Source: a virus (Duplodnaviria > Caudoviricetes). Taken from it: a stretch of 24,672 nucleotides of DNA. Shown in pieces: positions 4,596-23,742 of this stretch. The position numbers were made by a program, and so were the translations under genes. The notes under the pieces are model-generated. The model had not been told where the DNA came from. It saw only the letters and a program-made list of their open reading frames with translations, and ran no database searches. Positions within the stretch are counted from its first letter, which is position 1. Each line of letters begins with the position of its first letter. The DNA is taken from positions 1-24,672 of the IMG/VR virus record IMGVR_UViG_3300025390_000037. One strand, given 5' to 3'.

Positions 4596-5452
4596 GCGTC
4601 AATCTTTCCCCCATATTTAACGCAGTTGCACAGACAACTACGACAGGATTACCTTTGAGTGGTGGTTTGCTTTATACATATCAAGCAGGTTCAACCACAC
4701 CTTTGGCAACATACTCTGATAGCGCAGGTACGATTGCTAACACCAATCCTTTGACTTTGGGTACTGATGGTAGACCCCAAGTCGAAATTTGGCTTCAGTC
4801 TGCTTACAACTACAAGTTTTTGTTGACTGATGCGTTGGGTAATCAAATTGGTACATACGATAATATCTCAGGATTATCTAGCTACTATGGCCCATCAACT
4901 GCAGTAACTTCTGTTACAGGCACAAGCCCCATCAATGTAACGTCTGGGGTTACACCTAACGTATCGTTATCAGGTGTAATTGCTCGTGCAAATGGTGGAA
5001 CTGGCGTGTCTAGCCCCCCAGTATTTTTTGCTCACCAATCCATTGCTCAATCATTTACGACTGCAACATTAACGGTCGTGACGTATAACGTGGTTGACTT
5101 TGATTCAAATAGTTATTTTGTTAGCTCAAATAACTCATTCACACCTTTGATTGCAGGGTATTACCAAGTTAACGTTTCATGTACTTTTGCATCAACAACG
5201 ACAGGTTACCAATGTGGAGTTGGTGTGTCTGTGAGTGGTACTGTTAAAGACTATAACGTTGCTGCTAGTTCTGTTGTGGGTACAGGTGGTACAGATGGTA
5301 CTACTCCTGTTTGCTCAACAATTGTTTACTGTAATGGTACGACAGACTATATTCAAGGAGTTGCTGCTCAATCATCAGGGGGCACAATTTCTAGTGTCAC
5401 AGGTTTAAGTAATGCGACCACATTCTCTGTGGCATTTTTAAGAGGTGCATAA
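4592..5452 (+). CDS. Tail fibre/receptor-binding protein with virion-attachment N-domain and C1q-like beta C-domain
   Basis: N-terminus GLPLSGGLLYTYQAGSTTPLATYSD...NTNPLTLGTDGR is typical of podophage tail attachment domains. C-terminus VFFAHQS...FDSNSYF...FTPLIAGYYQVN resembles a C1q/TNF-like fold. Confidence 0.65.
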   Translation: MSVNLSPIFNAVAQTTTTGLPLSGGLLYTYQAGSTTPLATYSDSAGTIANTNPLTLGTDGRPQVEIWLQSAYNYKFLLTDALGNQIGTYDNISGLSSYYGPSTAVTSVTGTSPINVTSGVTPNVSLSGVIARANGGTGVSSPPVFFAHQSIAQSFTTATLTVVTYNVVDFDSNSYFVSSNNSFTPLIAGYYQVNVSCTFASTTTGYQCGVGVSVSGTVKDYNVAASSVVGTGGTDGTTPVCSTIVYCNGTTDYIQGVAAQSSGGTISSVTGLSNATTFSVAFLRGA

Positions 5453-5652
5453 TGGATGTTGACCCAATTCAATATGGACAGTTGATTGCTAAAGTTGATA
5501 TGCTTGAGAGTCAAGTGTCTGAGATGTCACACGACATTAAATGCTTATTGGCTATGGCAAACAAATCCAAAGGTGGCCTTTGGGCAGGCATGGCAATAGC
5601 ATCATTGATGGGTGGCGTGGTTCATTTCTTTGCTGAAAAGTTTCTAAAATGA
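5452..5652 (+). CDS. Small membrane protein (coiled coil plus C-terminal TM), lysis-cassette associated
   Basis: 66 aa with hydrophobic GGLWAGMAIASLMGGVVHFF; lies between the tail and lysis genes. Confidence 0.55.
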   Translation: MDVDPIQYGQLIAKVDMLESQVSEMSHDIKCLLAMANKSKGGLWAGMAIASLMGGVVHFFAEKFLK

Positions 5653-6155
5653 TTGATCCGATTTCAGCTTTTGCGATGGCTCAAGCTGCAATTAGTGGTG
5701 TCAAGAAGTGCGTTGAGTTATACAAAGAAGCCAAAGAAGTTGGCGCTGATGTGGTTGAGATTACCGCAGAAGTCACAGGTCACATAGGTTCCTTTATGGA
5801 ACATAGTGAGACAATGGCTAAAGCGGTTGAGGAATCTAAGAAAACACCCCCAAGTAGGGGGGAAAGTCTCAACAAGCGTGCTTTTGACAACATAATGAAG
5901 TTGCGTCAATTGCAAGAAGCGGAAAAAGAGCTAAGAGAGTTCCTGATTTACCAAACACCAGGTTGGGGCGCTATTTGGACAGAGTTTGAAGCGGAGAGAG
6001 CGAGGCTCAGAAAGGAGCAAGAATCCGCAGAGCGTGAGGCAAAAAAGCCGCAATGGACGCTTTACGAAAGCGCCAAGAACTCATTGATAAATACAAGGTC
6101 AGAGTGGTCGTTAGCATCGGTATTTTGTGCCTTGTCTTGGAATTCGTTGGGTTGA
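5649..6155 (+). CDS. Lysis-region coiled-coil protein, 0-frame product (168 aa); the -1 frameshift product would end at 6211 (187 aa)
   Basis: ORF track. Slippery A_AAA_AAG at 6041-6047; the -1 frame stays open to TGA 6209-6211. Confidence 0.7.
   Translation: MIDPISAFAMAQAAISGVKKCVELYKEAKEVGADVVEITAEVTGHIGSFMEHSETMAKAVEESKKTPPSRGESLNKRAFDNIMKLRQLQEAEKELREFLIYQTPGWGAIWTEFEAERARLRKEQESAEREAKKPQWTLYESAKNSLINTRSEWSLASVFCALSWNSLG
6041..6075 (+). promoter_or_regulatory. Candidate programmed -1 ribosomal frameshift signal
   Basis: Correctly phased heptamer A AAA AAG (6041-6047), 6-nt spacer, then hairpin TGG-A-CGCTTT-acg-AAAGCG-CCA (6054-6075). Confidence 0.7.
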
Positions 6156-6207
6156 TGTACTGGGTACGTCAAGATTACTTAAAAACTAAATATCATTTGG
6201 AGAGTGT

Positions 6208-6705
6208 ATGAGCTGGATTGAACAAATTGCCCCCACAATTGCTACTGCTTTGGGTGGCCCTTTAGCTGGTTTAGCCGTTGATGCGGTGTCTAAGGCCATC
6301 GGTGTAGACCCTAAAGACGTACAAGACACCATCAATACTGGTAAGTTATCTGCTGAACAAATAGCTTCTATCCAACAGGCTGAATTGACTTTAAAGACCA
6401 AAGCTCAAGAAATGGGTTTGGATTTTGAGCAATTGGCGGTCAATGATCGCAAGTCTGCAAGGGATATGCAGATGACAGTTAAGTCATGGATTCCCCCTAT
6501 ATTAGCCATTGGGATAACAATTGGGTTCTTTGGTATTATGTATGGCATGATGTCTGGTCATGTTCAGTCATCTGAGGCGCTTATGATACTTCTAGGTTCT
6601 TTAGGGACTGCTTGGACAGGAGTTATAAGTTTCTATTTTGGTTCTTCTGCCTCTAGCCAAGCCAAAGATCAGTTATTGCACCAATCAACACCTGTAGCAA
6701 AATGA
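6208..6705 (+). CDS. Holin-like membrane protein
   Basis: N-terminal APTIATALGGPLAG, DRKSARDM motif, two C-terminal TM segments ending in FYFGSS; directly upstream of the endolysin. Confidence 0.65.
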   Translation: MSWIEQIAPTIATALGGPLAGLAVDAVSKAIGVDPKDVQDTINTGKLSAEQIASIQQAELTLKTKAQEMGLDFEQLAVNDRKSARDMQMTVKSWIPPILAIGITIGFFGIMYGMMSGHVQSSEALMILLGSLGTAWTGVISFYFGSSASSQAKDQLLHQSTPVAK

Positions 6706-7133
6706 GTACACTAACCACACACTTCACTTTAGAAGAACTAACCCATACTGACCATCGTGAACTTGACAACACTCCAAATGAAACTGAGAAAGCTAATCTT
6801 ATGCGATTGGCAGTCTTTTTGGAAGATGTCAAGACATTACTTGGCGGTGCTCCAATTATGGTTAACTCAGCGTTTAGGTCTAAAGCAGTTAATGACTCTG
6901 TTGGAAGTAAAGATACTTCTCAGCATAGGGTTGGTTGTGCTGCTGACATCCGTGTACCTGGCCTCACTCCTGACCAAGTAGTACAGAAAATCATCGCATC
7001 TGATCTTGGATATGACCAAGTGATTAGGGAATTTGATCGTTGGACTCACATTTCTGTGCCTAACAATGCCTATGATAAACCACGAAAAATGGCGCTTATT
7101 ATTGACAAACAAGGCACAAGGAAGTACAGTTGA
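6702..7133 (+). CDS. Endolysin, peptidase M15 family (Zn peptidase)
   Basis: HFTLEEL start, SAFRSKAVN, SQHRVGCAAD (SxHxxGxAxD) and WTHIS zinc-ligand motifs. Confidence 0.88.
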   Translation: MSTLTTHFTLEELTHTDHRELDNTPNETEKANLMRLAVFLEDVKTLLGGAPIMVNSAFRSKAVNDSVGSKDTSQHRVGCAADIRVPGLTPDQVVQKIIASDLGYDQVIREFDRWTHISVPNNAYDKPRKMALIIDKQGTRKYS

Positions 7134-7153: not shown

Positions 7154-7179
7154 AAGGGGAATTCTTTCCCCTTTTTTTT
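7154..7179 (+). terminator. Rho-independent terminator
   Basis: AAGGGGAA-ttct-TTCCCCTT stem followed by a T run, just after the endolysin stop. Confidence 0.85.
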
Positions 7180-7216
7180 GCCTTAAAACTGTCACACACA
7201 AAAGTGACAATTAGTT

Positions 7217-7636
7217 ATGCAAATCAAAATCATAGATGCAACTGTTATAGAGAACTATGATCTTTTGAATGATCTTCAAAAAGAGTGTTTGCCCCATGAT
7301 GATTTATATAACGTATTAGATGGATGGTGGTGGATAGCTTATGACAACGATCTCCCTATTGGATTTAGTGGTCTTGTTCGCTCTAAACGTTGGAGCGATA
7401 CTGGTTATTTTTGCCGCGCGGGTGTTGTTAAGCGATACCGAGGCAAAGGAATACAAAAAGACCTTATCAGAGTTAGAGAACGCAAGGCTAGGAAGCTAGG
7501 CTTCAACTGGATCATCACAGACACAACTGATAATCCTCCATCGTCTAATTCTCTTATTTCATGCGGTTACAAACTATTCAACCCCTCTATTCCTTGGGGG
7601 GGACGTAGAACTCTTTATTGGAGAAAAAGACTGTGA
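7217..7636 (+). CDS. GNAT-family acetyltransferase
   Basis: Acetyl-CoA binding motif AGVVKRYRGKGIQKDLI and C-terminal NPPSSNSLISCGY. Confidence 0.85.
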   Translation: MQIKIIDATVIENYDLLNDLQKECLPHDDLYNVLDGWWWIAYDNDLPIGFSGLVRSKRWSDTGYFCRAGVVKRYRGKGIQKDLIRVRERKARKLGFNWIITDTTDNPPSSNSLISCGYKLFNPSIPWGGRRTLYWRKRL

Positions 7637-8583
7637 AATACTATTCTGACGAAGAATTTATCATGTTGTTTCAGTTGTACAAAAGCCCTAGCGTAATGGC
7701 TTCTGAGCTTGGTATGTCTGAAAGGGCAATATACGCTCGTAGAAACGCTCTAGAGGGCCGATATGAGATTCAGTTAGAAACCGTAGAGGCTAAGAATAGG
7801 GTTGAGCCAAAGCCTCCTAGACTTGATTTAGGCATATTGAACGGCACAGTCATTGTTTTCTCTGATGCACACTTTTGGCCTGGCATCCGTACAACTGCCT
7901 ATGATGGATTGATTTGGGCCATCAAGAATATGGAAAATGTCAAAGCAGTCATTAACAATGGTGACGCATTTGATGGAGCTAGTATCAGTCGCTTTCCTAG
8001 AATTGGGTGGGATAAAACACCATCTCTCGTTGACGAGGTTAAAACGTGCGAGATAGCTCTTGGTGAAATAGAAGACGAAGCCAAAAGGGTTAACAAAAAT
8101 GTTAAGTTGATGTGGCCTTTGGGCAACCATGACGCTAGATTTGAGAATAAATTAGCTGCTAATGCGCCTCAATATGAGCACATTAAAGGGTTTAGCTTAA
8201 AAGACCACTTCCCTGCTTGGCATCCATGTTGGTCGGTTTGGCTAAATGAAACCGTAATCGTGAAACATCGTTGGAAAGGTGGCACACACGCTACTCATGC
8301 CAATACCCTTAATTCTGGTGTTTCTATGGTTACAGGGCATCTACATAGCCTCAAAGTAACCCCATACGATGACTATAACGGTACACGATACGGTGTGGAT
8401 ACAGGGACGTTAGCAGAGCCTACAGGCCCACAGTTTGAGAATTACCTAGAGCACGCACCGACCAATTGGAGGTCGGGTTTTGCTATACTTACGTTTCACA
8501 AAGGTGTATTATTGTGGCCTGAAGTGGTAAAAGTGTACGATAAAGACCACATCGAGTTCAGAGGACAAGTTATAAAGGTCTAA
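7633..8583 (+). CDS. Calcineurin-like metallophosphoesterase with N-terminal HTH-like segment
   Basis: SDAH, GDAFD, GNHD and GHLH motifs; N-terminal SVMASELGMSERAIYARR is HTH-like. Start is probably GTG 7633 (GTGA overlap); the ORF track gives 7618. Confidence 0.85.
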   Translation: MKYYSDEEFIMLFQLYKSPSVMASELGMSERAIYARRNALEGRYEIQLETVEAKNRVEPKPPRLDLGILNGTVIVFSDAHFWPGIRTTAYDGLIWAIKNMENVKAVINNGDAFDGASISRFPRIGWDKTPSLVDEVKTCEIALGEIEDEAKRVNKNVKLMWPLGNHDARFENKLAANAPQYEHIKGFSLKDHFPAWHPCWSVWLNETVIVKHRWKGGTHATHANTLNSGVSMVTGHLHSLKVTPYDDYNGTRYGVDTGTLAEPTGPQFENYLEHAPTNWRSGFAILTFHKGVLLWPEVVKVYDKDHIEFRGQVIKV

Positions 8584-9649: not shown

Positions 9650-9815
9650 TTTCTAATTCCTTAATTCTCGCTGCAATGGCCTTACCTAACCCTGTAAATA
9701 GACCTGTTGGGTCTTTCTCCATGATCCCAACTTGGTATCGTGCGTGGTCAATCCAACCTGGCATCATGGCTAGACGTGCGTAATGGTCAATAAATTGCTC
9801 AATTTCAAACATCAT
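9615..9815 (-). CDS. Hypothetical protein
   Basis: ORF probably starting MMFEIEQ at 9815, overlapping the methyltransferase stop (ATGA). Confidence 0.55.
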   Translation of the reverse strand: MMFEIEQFIDHYARLAMMPGWIDHARYQVGIMEKDPTGLFTGLGKAIAARIKELENESSTSGSESR

Positions 9816-10548
9816 TCTGAGAGTATATTCCATGCAACTGCTGCCACTCTAGGAACTTGTCCATTGCCAATGGCTTTAAGTCTGTCCACTCTAGAGGCCA
9901 TCCCATTAACCACTCGACCCACGTTGGGTTCAACCGGCCATCCGTAGTTGGCTCTAAGCTCATCACCACTTCTCCAAGATTGCTTTTCCAATGTTGGTTG
10001 GTCGGGTCTAGATGTCTGCTGATTGCGTGTCTTGAATCCTGGCAAACTGGTGTGGGCCACTTCTTTTGCGACAATCCAAATTCTATCTCTCTGATGTGGC
10101 GCTCCAATGTCACCTGCTCCCAACACTCCCCATCTCGCATTAAACCCCATTGAGGCCAAGTCTCCAAGAACTCGTCCAAGCCCCCTAGAAGTGAGCATTG
10201 GTGAGTTTTCCACAAAGACGTGCTTTGGTCGTACCTCGTGAATGATGCGAGCCATTTGTCCCCACATTCCTGATCGTTCTCCGTCAATTCCTGCGCCTTT
10301 TCCTGCTGCTGAGATGTCTTGGCATGGAAATCCTCCCGAAACAACGTCAACAATTCCTCTCCACGGTCTTCCGTCAAAGGTTTTAACGTCATCCCAAATC
10401 GGGAAAGGCGGGAGAAGACCGTCATTTTGTCGGGCGCACAATACGCTTCCTGGATAGGCTTCCCATTCGACTGCACAGACTGTTCGCCATCCGAGCAAAT
10501 GTCCCCCAAGTATTCCTCCACCAGCGCCTGCGAAAAGAGCCAACTCAT
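9805..10548 (-). CDS. Overlapping alternative-frame protein, putative methyltransferase beta-like chain (TRD plus motif IX)
   Basis: 247 codons open across the MTase gene. C-terminal WPTP...GRLNPTWVEWLMGWP resembles C5-MTase motif IX. ATG directly follows the upstream gene's stop. Confidence 0.72.
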   Translation of the reverse strand: MSWLFSQALVEEYLGDICSDGEQSVQSNGKPIQEAYCAPDKMTVFSRLSRFGMTLKPLTEDRGEELLTLFREDFHAKTSQQQEKAQELTENDQECGDKWLASFTRYDQSTSLWKTHQCSLLGGLDEFLETWPQWGLMRDGECWEQVTLERHIREIEFGLSQKKWPTPVCQDSRHAISRHLDPTNQHWKSNLGEVVMSLEPTTDGRLNPTWVEWLMGWPLEWTDLKPLAMDKFLEWQQLHGIYSQNDV

Positions 10549-10552
10549 TCAT
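9812..10552 (-). CDS. C5-cytosine DNA methyltransferase, catalytic (alpha-like) chain
   Basis: Motif I LFAGAGG, IV GGFPCQ, VI VENS, VIII HQRDR and X LKAIGNGQVP; no recognisable motif IX. Confidence 0.92.
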   Translation of the reverse strand: MNELALFAGAGGGILGGHLLGWRTVCAVEWEAYPGSVLCARQNDGLLPPFPIWDDVKTFDGRPWRGIVDVVSGGFPCQDISAAGKGAGIDGERSGMWGQMARIIHEVRPKHVFVENSPMLTSRGLGRVLGDLASMGFNARWGVLGAGDIGAPHQRDRIWIVAKEVAHTSLPGFKTRNQQTSRPDQPTLEKQSWRSGDELRANYGWPVEPNVGRVVNGMASRVDRLKAIGNGQVPRVAAVAWNILSE

Positions 10553-22266: not shown

Positions 22267-22419
22267 ATGGCAAATAATCTGCTTACCATATCCAAGATCA
22301 CCAATGAAGCGTTGATGGTCTTGGAAAATGAGTTGACTTTTACATCAGAGGTCGATAGAAATTACGATGACCAATTTGCGGTTGTCGGAGCTAAAATCGG
22401 TAATACCGTAAACGTCCGT
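22267..22419 (+). CDS. Major capsid protein (P22 coat-like), exon 1
   Basis: AAGGA RBS; MANNLLTISKITNEALMVLENELTFTSEVDRNYDDQFAVVGAKIGNTVNVR followed by TAA; missing from the ORF track. Confidence 0.9.
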
Positions 22420-22641
22420 TAAGAGTCTGCGGACGAAAAACCCTTTCTGATTGACTTGGACGCCTAGAAGTAGGTTACAAGGGGCAAGCAAGAGAAATCT
22501 GTGCAGCCTGAACGACTAAGTGAAGGGGCGCTAAAGAAATTTAGTGATGCGATAGTCTGACCTACCGTATAACAAAGGAAGCGGTAGAGAGAAATCCGAA
22601 GCGGTTTCTCCCGCAGAGATGCGAGTAACAATTGACCTGTG
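22420..22641 (+). ncRNA. Group I self-splicing intron (222 nt, no ORF)
   Basis: P1 CGTCCGT/GCGGACG with U-G at the splice site; P10 GTCT/AGAC; P3 CCCTTTC/GAAGGGG; P7 GACTA/TAGTC; P8 GAAA hairpin; P9 helices; terminal G at 22641. Removal restores the reading frame. Confidence 0.9.
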
Positions 22642-23742
22642 AGACCAGGTCGCTTTATCGGTACAACTGGCCCTGCTTTGAACGTTGAAGACTTCAACGA
22701 GACTAGCGTTCCTGTGACTTTGAGCACTCAATTCCACGTTGACACTCAATTCACCACGCAAGACTTGGCTTTGTCTCTCGATATGTTTAGCGACCGTGTG
22801 CTTAAGCCCGCAGTTGCAGCTATCGCCAACAAGATTGACCGTGACGGTTTGGTCATGGCTAATCTGAACACCGCCAACATCGTTGGTACACCTGGTACAC
22901 CTCCCACAGGTTTGATTACATACTTGACTGGTCAAGCGTATTTGGACTCTGAAGGTGCTCCTCGTGACGGACGTAGATCATGTATCGTTGAGCCTTTCAC
23001 TTCTGCAACCATTGTTGACTCATTGAAGGGACTTTTTGTTCCCCAAGAGGCAATTGGCGAGCAATACAGGAAAGGGCTTATGGGCCGAGACAGCGGCGGC
23101 ATGAACTGGCGTCTCGATCAAAACGTTGTAGCCCAAGGTTTTGGATTCTGGACAGGTTCTACTGCTGGTTCTATCACCGTTAACGGTTCTAACCAAGGTC
23201 TCGCATCAGGTTGGGCGCAAACTTCTACCATCAACATTACTGCAACTGCAACAGGTACATTGAACCCTGGTGACGTTATCAATTTTGCTGGTGTGTACGC
23301 AGTTAACCCCCAAAACCGTCAAGCGTATGGTTCTAACAAGTTGCGTAATTTTGTTGTTAAATCAGCAGTTGCGTTGACTAACGGAAACACAAGCGTGACA
23401 GTTAGCCCCGCTTTGATCTACGGTGGACAGTTCCAAAACGTAACTGCTTCTCCCACATCAGGCGTTGCAGTAACACCTTACCAAATCGGTGTGTCTTCCA
23501 ACTCTGTGTACTCTCCCCAAAACATTATCATGCACCGCAATGCTTTCACATTGGCAGTCGCTGATCTTGAGTTGCCCGAGGGTGTTCACTTTGCTGGTCG
23601 TGCAAGCGACAAGGAAATTGGATTGTCAATGCGTGTTGTGCGTCAGTACACCATCAACAATGACTCAATCCCAACTCGTCTTGACGTTCTTTATGGATGG
23701 GCACCGCTCTATCCTGAACTCGCTTGCAGAGTTGCAGCTTAA
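22642..23742 (+). CDS. Major capsid protein (P22 coat-like), exon 2; spliced product 417 aa
   Basis: RPGRFIG...LKPAVAAIANKID...GDVINFAGVYAVNP...RLDVLYGW is typical of P22 gp5-like coats. Confidence 0.92.
   Translation, partial: RPGRFIGTTGPALNVEDFNETSVPVTLSTQFHVDTQFTTQDLALSLDMFSDRVLKPAVAAIANKIDRDGLVMANLNTANIVGTPGTPPTGLITYLTGQAYLDSEGAPRDGRRSCIVEPFTSATIVDSLKGLFVPQEAIGEQYRKGLMGRDSGGMNWRLDQNVVAQGFGFWTGSTAGSITVNGSNQGLASGWAQTSTINITATATGTLNPGDVINFAGVYAVNPQNRQAYGSNKLRNFVVKSAVALTNGNTSVTVSPALIYGGQFQNVTASPTSGVAVTPYQIGVSSNSVYSPQNIIMHRNAFTLAVADLELPEGVHFAGRASDKEIGLSMRVVRQYTINNDSIPTRLDVLYGWAPLYPELACRVAA

Follow-up and report, generated by a model that had tools for sequence, protein, structure and literature searches.

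A conserved slippery site and a candidate programmed -1 frameshift that would add a membrane anchor to a probable lysis-cassette protein of freshwater phages

Why should a gene in an apparent phage lysis cassette encode a soluble protein in one reading frame and a transmembrane (TM) helix in the next? The question is raised by positions 5649 to 6211 of a 24,672-nucleotide (nt) stretch of tailed-phage DNA, IMG/VR record IMGVR_UViG_3300025390_000037, referred to below as the window. Its sequence occurs in 20 freshwater metagenome runs, six of them possibly its own source, and it carries terminase, portal, scaffold, major head and DNA-ejection genes (a podovirus-like module). The explanation favoured here, with a probability of roughly 0.6, is that a programmed -1 ribosomal frameshift yields a soluble form of 168 residues and a membrane-anchored form of 187 residues of what is probably an accessory lysis protein. 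Comparison of sequences demonstrates that the gene is split, that the split has a fixed place, that the -1 frame is under selection and that early stops in frame 0 are selected against; recoding of the site in vivo is very probable.

The gene lies on the + strand. Frame 0 (5649..6155, stop codon 6153-6155) encodes the predicted soluble form, consisting of 133 residues common to both products (5649..6047) and a tail of 35 residues (6048..6155). The -1 frame is open from 6038 to a TGA at 6209-6211, which overlaps the ATG of the next gene at 6208 (ATGA), and beyond the shift site it supplies 54 residues and a stop (6047..6211), comprising a basic stalk, a TM helix and a short C-terminal tail, to give a long form of 133 + 54 = 187 residues. 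The TM helix is predicted at extension residues 20-38 (6104..6160, Kyte-Doolittle mean 2.42), against a best 19-residue hydropathy of 0.63 in the frame 0 tail. At the site, frame 0 reads GCA (6039), AAA (6042) and AAG (6045), which places the heptamer A_AAA_AAG (6041..6047), with its run of six A, in the X_XXY_YYZ phase, 22 codons past Trp110. Six nt further on, a stem-loop of -9.1 kcal/mol is predicted at 6054..6075. The phase of the heptamer, the TM helix and terminal overlap of the -1 frame and the lengths of the two products, recomputed from the sequence, are as the original prediction gave them; the hairpin that it described is also found, at a modest stability and in a register peculiar to its own lineage. 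Taken alone, the heptamer could be a chance occurrence, since the window contains one in-phase A_AAA_AAG where 2.3 are expected over 7,443 codon positions. It is conservation that raises it above chance.

This conservation was assessed on 364 collected loci, the first 299 of which, together with the window, gave 293 that were anchored by profile on the conserved tryptophan. The TM tail is in the -1 frame in 188 of these loci and in frame in 96; it is cut off in eight, and one locus has a local duplication (L127). Merging near-copies, including the same contig from two collections, so that each unique 180-nt stretch counts as one distinct context, leaves 105 split and 65 in-frame contexts. The motif xxA_AAA_AAR (R, purine) stands exactly 22 codons past the tryptophan in 105 of 105 split contexts but in only 1 of 65 in-frame contexts (L212). 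The split genes form clade A (45 loci including the window, 20 distinct), with GCA_AAA_AAG, six A and 68-100% identity to the N-terminal domain of the window protein, clade B (134 loci, 83 distinct; 34-48% identity to that domain) and clade C (nine loci, two distinct; GAA_AAA_AAG; 47% identity). Among 65 further loci used as an out-of-sample check, 57 were in frame and eight were split, all eight at the same codon; these brought in new split lineages, clade D (seven loci, CAA_AAA_AAG) and a locus with nine A, L300. A profile search of 50% representatives gave 434 matches at E<=0.001; 119 of the best 150 representatives were anchored, 86 with a clear TM helix, and several of those lacking one show two lysines (KK) at the same position; the out-of-sample loci came from tracing two of these representatives to their DNA. 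Database entries for split members are short hypothetical proteins from which the anchor is missing. The -1 extension is homologous to the in-frame C-terminus of a relative, P0154 (E 5e-7), and aligns in gap-free register with L029 and L027. Across clade A, 19 of 20 contexts place the next ATG at -4, -1 or 0 relative to the stop of the -1 frame. Homologues that encode the TM tail in frame without a slippery site, which the original prediction had named as grounds for abandoning it, do therefore exist (the 96 of 293 loci above), but they do not refute it, because the -1 tail is the ordinary C-terminus of the family and several separate lineages keep the split together with a fixed site.

Selection is apparent on both frames. 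In clade A none of the site codons GCA, AAA and AAG varies (20 of 20 distinct sequences), against a background in which one codon is kept in 5 of 55 columns with an invariant degenerate residue; in the first set of clade B loci the corresponding counts are 23 of 23 and 2 of 51 columns. The residue before the lysines varies (Ala, Gln, Glu or Leu), yet its codon always ends in A. Downstream of the site, variation by -1 codon position is highest at the third position (0.27/0.19/0.47 in clade A and 0.36/0.24/0.50 in clade B), and amino acid identity over 22 codons is higher in the -1 frame than in frame 0 (61% versus 41% in clade A, 48% versus 34% in clade B). Lineages that have diverged widely thus show the pattern of purifying selection in the -1 frame. 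As for frame 0, no stop is seen within its first 22 codons in the split lineages, where 4.8 (clade A) and 10.0 (clade B) were expected over distinct sites, with Poisson P values of 0.008 and 5e-5 that serve as guides only, since the lineages are related; stop counts in control segments are at expectation. In the equivalent off-frame of in-frame homologues, 51 stops were counted for an expectation of 46.3 and a stop comes before codon 23 in 28 of 33 lineages, so that a frame open for at least 23 codons is seen in 5 of 33 control lineages and in every split lineage. Frame 0 is kept free of early stops, so unshifted translation matters as well; the soluble product may require a tail of a certain length, or ribosomes may have to stay on the messenger RNA, and the pattern fits both.

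The likely nature of the two products can be gauged from predicted structures. Residues 1-130 match positions 1-118 of the 152-position profile of PHROG 32327 (E 1.1e-9), a family of unknown function, and AlphaFold2 models them at a predicted local distance difference test score (pLDDT) of 90 with helices at 4-30, 36-65, 74-102 and 106-129, so that the shared region is predicted to be a three-helix bundle with the start of a long stalk helix. In the model of an in-frame homologue a single helix of 90 residues includes the TM segment (pLDDT 92), and the slippery site falls in that stalk. The anchored form is predicted to hold a three-helix bundle in the cytoplasm, with its N-terminus inside, on a single long helix whose far end is the TM segment in the inner membrane. 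This orientation is suggested by the basic residues before the TM helix, which the positive-inside rule links to topology. In-frame relatives are predicted to make the anchored form as their sole product. The split gene matches no lysis family in Pfam, PHROG or NCBIfam, and Foldseek gave no match in the PDB at E<=0.001; the matches in BFVD are only to uncharacterised phage proteins, and those in the ESM Atlas only to unnamed viral clusters. The best rows from VIA-align are syntaxin Habc-type bundles (Z 11.2, root mean square deviation 3.1, 101 residues aligned), within the range for generic helical bundles, and the syntaxin-like layout is a lead only.

The route by which the frame is changed appears to differ between clades. 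In clade A, the 45 nt right after the heptamer are the most over-folded of 17 segments (mean z -2.28), with 9 of 12 lineages below z -1.5; the next lowest segment, near the gene start, has a mean of -1.09. The window hairpin itself has z -3.97 in a 29-nt segment chosen around it and only -0.97 in a 53-nt segment. In clade D all six distinct contexts fold after the heptamer (-10.8 to -12.9 kcal/mol), whilst the clade C hairpin has z -3.8 under one null and -0.2 under another. Lineages with six or seven A followed by G tend to keep a 3' hairpin, as a ribosomal signal would, and A_AAA_AAG is among the most shift-prone motifs in Escherichia coli (PMC4066793; this and the other papers are cited from excerpts). 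If the site is recoded, there is a strong probability that the slip in clade A is made by the ribosome. In clade B, 81 of the 83 distinct contexts carry nine A and the other two carry ten, the run keeping an equal length in two phases, CAA/GAA_AAA_AAA_AGR or YTA_AAA_AAA_AAG; a run of at least nine A occurs once elsewhere in 103 kb of these loci, and the RNA folds no more than background (mean z -0.22 and +0.49). Nine A is an efficient slippage length for bacterial polymerase (PMC5009743, PMC1088944). Because nine A are kept in two phases with no excess folding, transcriptional slippage, as in dnaX, is suggested for clade B at about even odds; the route stays conjectural, given that ribosomes too can shift on A_AAA_AAA (PMC4066793). 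In the clade B contig L212 (site near 1880), a run of ten A puts the anchor in frame where 97% identical neighbours have nine; the tenth A is either an assembly error or DNA-level slippage.

In the proposed mechanism for the window, two lysine tRNAs would re-pair in the -1 frame while the 3' hairpin slows the ribosome, with the anchored form as the minority product. The soluble form, made in excess and sharing an interaction surface with the anchored one, would then damp or time it, and the shift may set the dose of the anchored form against it. That the anchored form acts with the holin/spanin/endolysin module, at a dose set by the shift against the soluble form, is the most speculative part of the proposal, with perhaps slightly better than even prospects. 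An accessory role in lysis is favoured just as narrowly, from gene neighbours only. The gene is preceded by an open reading frame (ORF) of 66 residues with a hydrophobic C-terminus (5452..5652, +; weak match to PHROG 37133, unknown function), the stop of which overlaps the split-gene start. It is followed by genes for a membrane protein of 165 residues (6208..6705, +) and a peptidase M15 endolysin (6702..7133, +; PHROG 894, E 1.4e-33; PF08291), and then by a hairpin and T run (7154..7183, +) that resemble an intrinsic terminator by consensus match only. The membrane protein had been called holin-like; its direct match is to PHROG 1544, of unknown function, and what survives of that description is an indirect link, through a gene in the same slot of L017 that matches holin PHROG 3427 (4e-16) and, weakly, PHROG 1544 (3e-4). 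Inspection of 10 clade A and nine clade B loci placed the split gene immediately ahead of genes for membrane proteins, spanins or endolysins. An endolysin gene lies at most three ORFs downstream in 12 of 12 clade A and B loci scanned, with seven different best-match endolysin PHROGs, and the following gene in some scanned loci encodes holin PHROG 3427 or Rz-like spanins. An in-frame homologue, JMMIOEOB_00113, lies three genes ahead of the endolysin gene in DC31, a cultured phage of Limnohabitans; the available text of the paper on this phage (PMC12195039) makes no mention of frameshifts.

Several observations weigh against this proposal. RNAalifold finds no consensus stem in clade A, and a 13-pair stem set by hand from these same sequences is 74% paired with covariation not above that of shuffles (50/500). 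Under a strict hairpin rule, taken from PMC4066793 in our own implementation, the window and 7 of the 12 clade A lineages fail; the rule is passed by 5 of the 12, the window not among them, and also by 7 of 32 clade B lineages. With the clade A stems in different registers and lacking a consensus, a 3' stimulator is probable rather than demonstrated; the expectation that homologues would share heptamer, hairpin and -1 TM helix is borne out for the first and last, whilst no single hairpin is conserved. A Shine-Dalgarno (SD)-like stimulator is an optional feature of the bacterial -1 frameshift class, and no such element is present 6-17 nt upstream of the heptamer in the window; GAGG occurs 17 nt upstream in 15 of 20 clade A contexts against a background of 23%, possibly as no more than a pair of Glu-Ala codons. 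Motifs of this kind that lack stimulators shift at about 0.3% in E. coli, with a maximum of 3.7% (PMC4066793), and little of the long form might therefore be made. Clade C genes are followed by terminase, and the in-frame members L027, L032, L038 and L063 have no lysis gene among their scanned neighbours; with clade C and several in-frame members placed elsewhere, the link to lysis is not universal. Lastly, the sequence of the frame 0 tail is not conserved, and in-frame relatives do without a short form at the site.

These last two points would also be expected if the site were recoded as described but the short product were inert, the shift serving only as a throttle on the anchored protein and on translation of the next gene, to which it is coupled, while an open frame 0 would hold ribosomes on the messenger RNA and spare the downstream genes from polarity. 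A free-varying tail and a dispensable short form both suit such a scheme, as does clade C, where both frames run for about 93-95 codons and both end at the terminase start, and L300, with its frame 0 tail of 84 codons. However, a weak start would be a cheaper throttle, and the placing of the split, in several lineages, at a single codon that separates bundle from anchor would suit a site at which a soluble domain can usefully be cut off. The possibility is a real one, although with a minority share of the probability. In the clade C locus L080 (2143-2190), the -1 stop (TAATG) and the frame 0 stop both overlap the start of the terminase large subunit gene, and frame 0 is open for 95 codons.

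A recoded late membrane protein with a task outside lysis, for example superinfection exclusion or the membrane tethering of assembly, might sit at the end of a late operon. The absence of a match to any known lysis family, PHROG 32327 being of unknown function, would be natural for such a protein, as would the clade C genes that adjoin terminase and the in-frame members found among non-lysis genes. Against this stands the position of the gene directly before the lysis module despite exchanges of holin, spanin and endolysin in clades A and B, clade D, L300 and DC31, and a non-lysis function is rather unlikely.

The prospect that RNA polymerase, not the ribosome, changes the frame in the window by adding one A draws on the nine A of clade B (81 of 83 contexts), their two phases and their lack of excess folding, which indicate that the family may use slippage. 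The run length for programmed transcriptional slippage, about nine A or T or more, is reached in clade B and L300, but the window has six A ending in an invariant G, the tandem-slip phase is kept in all contexts of clades A, C and D, and there is a 3' folding signal, so that this route is improbable for the window. It is still less likely that the TM tail is a separate gene of 52 residues, starting at ATG 6053 and overlapping the 168-residue gene. The window does have that ATG in the -1 frame, but a -1 frame ATG is present in only 2 of 20 clade A contexts (TTG in 3 of 20), and no ATG, GTG or TTG start is found in 23 clade B or two clade C contexts; moreover, the tail is the in-frame C-terminus of homologues, and a separate gene would leave the invariant heptamer unexplained. 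Given the invariant site codons, the pattern of variation in the -1 frame, the gap-free tail alignment and the lack of a conserved start, neither error nor decay nor a separate gene will serve as a general explanation. The tenth A of L212 shows that run-length variants or errors do occur in clade B, but an explanation by faulty assembly, by a pseudogene or by phase variation of the A run at the DNA level is largely refuted by the run of six A in all 45 clade A loci, by the lack of an inserted or missing letter in the contigs (not raw reads) of eight runs, some of which may be the source of the window itself, by the absence of any seven-A version of the site in an exact-match scan of viral contigs, and by purifying selection on the -1 frame.

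A tree of 36 representative rows, with DNA-confirmed labels only and three rows truncated by the start finder, needs five changes between split and in-frame genes, of which starred branches force at least two. A single clade of split genes is rejected (approximately unbiased test, p-AU 0.0006; an earlier test on 28 rows gave p-AU 0.043). Gain and loss of the split are indistinguishable in this tree, which phage recombination may blur; by these comparisons, several lineages have either retained or re-acquired the split, all at a single codon position that divides bundle from anchor. Sites of reversed polarity in in-frame members were considered and rejected, since A_AAA_AAR occurs nearby in only 5 of the 65 in-frame contexts and at scattered positions. 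An in-frame sister of the window's clade, L027 (site near 2885), has a run of eight A and A_AAT_TTT at the homologous lysines, where a -1 slip would truncate the protein, giving the reverse polarity in one AT-rich lineage only. A broader scheme, which is tentative and on balance doubtful, is that a widespread freshwater-phage lysis-cassette family has switched repeatedly between a plain anchored gene and a gene recoded at one codon, either by a ribosomal -1 shift (A_AAA_AAG plus hairpin) or by polymerase slippage (nine A), with the ratio of soluble to anchored isoform setting lysis timing. Such a scheme would achieve by recoding what the holin/antiholin switch does by a dual start.

Most of the known recoding in phages concerns tail chaperone and capsid genes. 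A change of frame tied to lysis has reportedly been described for a Lactococcus phage lysin made from two overlapping genes (Shearman 1994), a different gene from the present one. For the single-stranded RNA phage MS2, a 1987 paper is said, by its title, to credit lysis expression to termination at the coat gene instead of a frame change. A close mechanistic parallel is the tau/gamma pair of E. coli dnaX, which has A_AAA_AAG with a 3' stem and two products sharing an N-terminus, as is predicted for the window. Orthologues of dnaX appear to swap A_AAA_AAG for a nine-A run (PMC3711429), with a ribosomal route in E. coli, nine-A transcriptional slippage in Thermus thermophilus and split-type dnaX genes with poly-A (PMC5009743, PMC1088944, PMC3711429). 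In contrast to dnaX, an unrelated protein, the present gene belongs to a phage late operon, has no SD stimulator in the window, would gain an anchor by the shift and has common in-frame relatives with a single product. The G/GT tail chaperone of lambda and other long-tailed phages resembles it as a phage late gene whose -1 shift adds a C-terminal extension to a small, fixed share of the product (PMC5009743); here the phage is podovirus-like, the extension is a TM anchor, no chaperone family is matched and the gene lies not between major tail and tape measure genes but amongst the 66-residue ORF, PHROG 1544 and endolysin genes. The E. coli copA gene gives, as the present gene would, a soluble N-terminal domain and a membrane protein through a -1 frameshift (PMC5009743), although its shift makes the short soluble form rather than the anchored one and the proteins are unrelated. 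The Ebola virus glycoprotein is soluble by default and anchored after one A is added at an A run (PMC5009743), but as a product of a eukaryotic RNA virus and a viral polymerase, without homology, it is an analogy only. The MS2 coat/lysis case shares a frame change tied to phage lysis (PMC10885494) and differs in being a lysis peptide of a single-stranded RNA phage.

A search of the literature outside subscription journals found no paper on this family, nor on an anchor-adding frameshift in the lysis cassette of a double-stranded DNA phage, and the word 'holin' is absent from the available text of the Atkins review. The signal is of a known kind; the gene family, the soluble/anchored outcome and the apparent two routes do not occur in the papers that this search covered. 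Recoding here would decide the presence of a membrane anchor on a lysis-cassette protein, in a family without a described function. The in-frame, A6G-plus-hairpin and A9 members provide natural controls for asking why two products are made and whether ribosomal and transcriptional slippage are interchangeable in phages, and the cultured pair of DC31 and Limnohabitans, which carries an in-frame homologue, makes the function of the protein testable.

Genome scans for a host gave none that matched the alignment of the window's clade, and the window contains no tRNA. An in-frame homologue occurs on a 60-kb contig binned as Ca. Nanopelagicales (L364), and the cultured homologue infects Limnohabitans. 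Past the lysis genes and behind the terminator, window positions 7217-8583 encode a GNAT acetyltransferase and a metallophosphoesterase (PHROG 221). An insert of 222 nt (22420-22641) interrupts the major head gene (PHROG 283), leaving parts at 22267-22419 and about 22642-23742. The insert is strongly folded (z -3.5), ends in G and shows, at the 5' junction, a helix that includes a U-G pair; it has no Rfam match, and by these hallmarks it is probably a small group I intron. At 9805-10552 on the - strand, ORFs of 246 and 247 residues overlap almost fully in different frames, and one of them is presumably, by its motifs, a cytosine methyltransferase.
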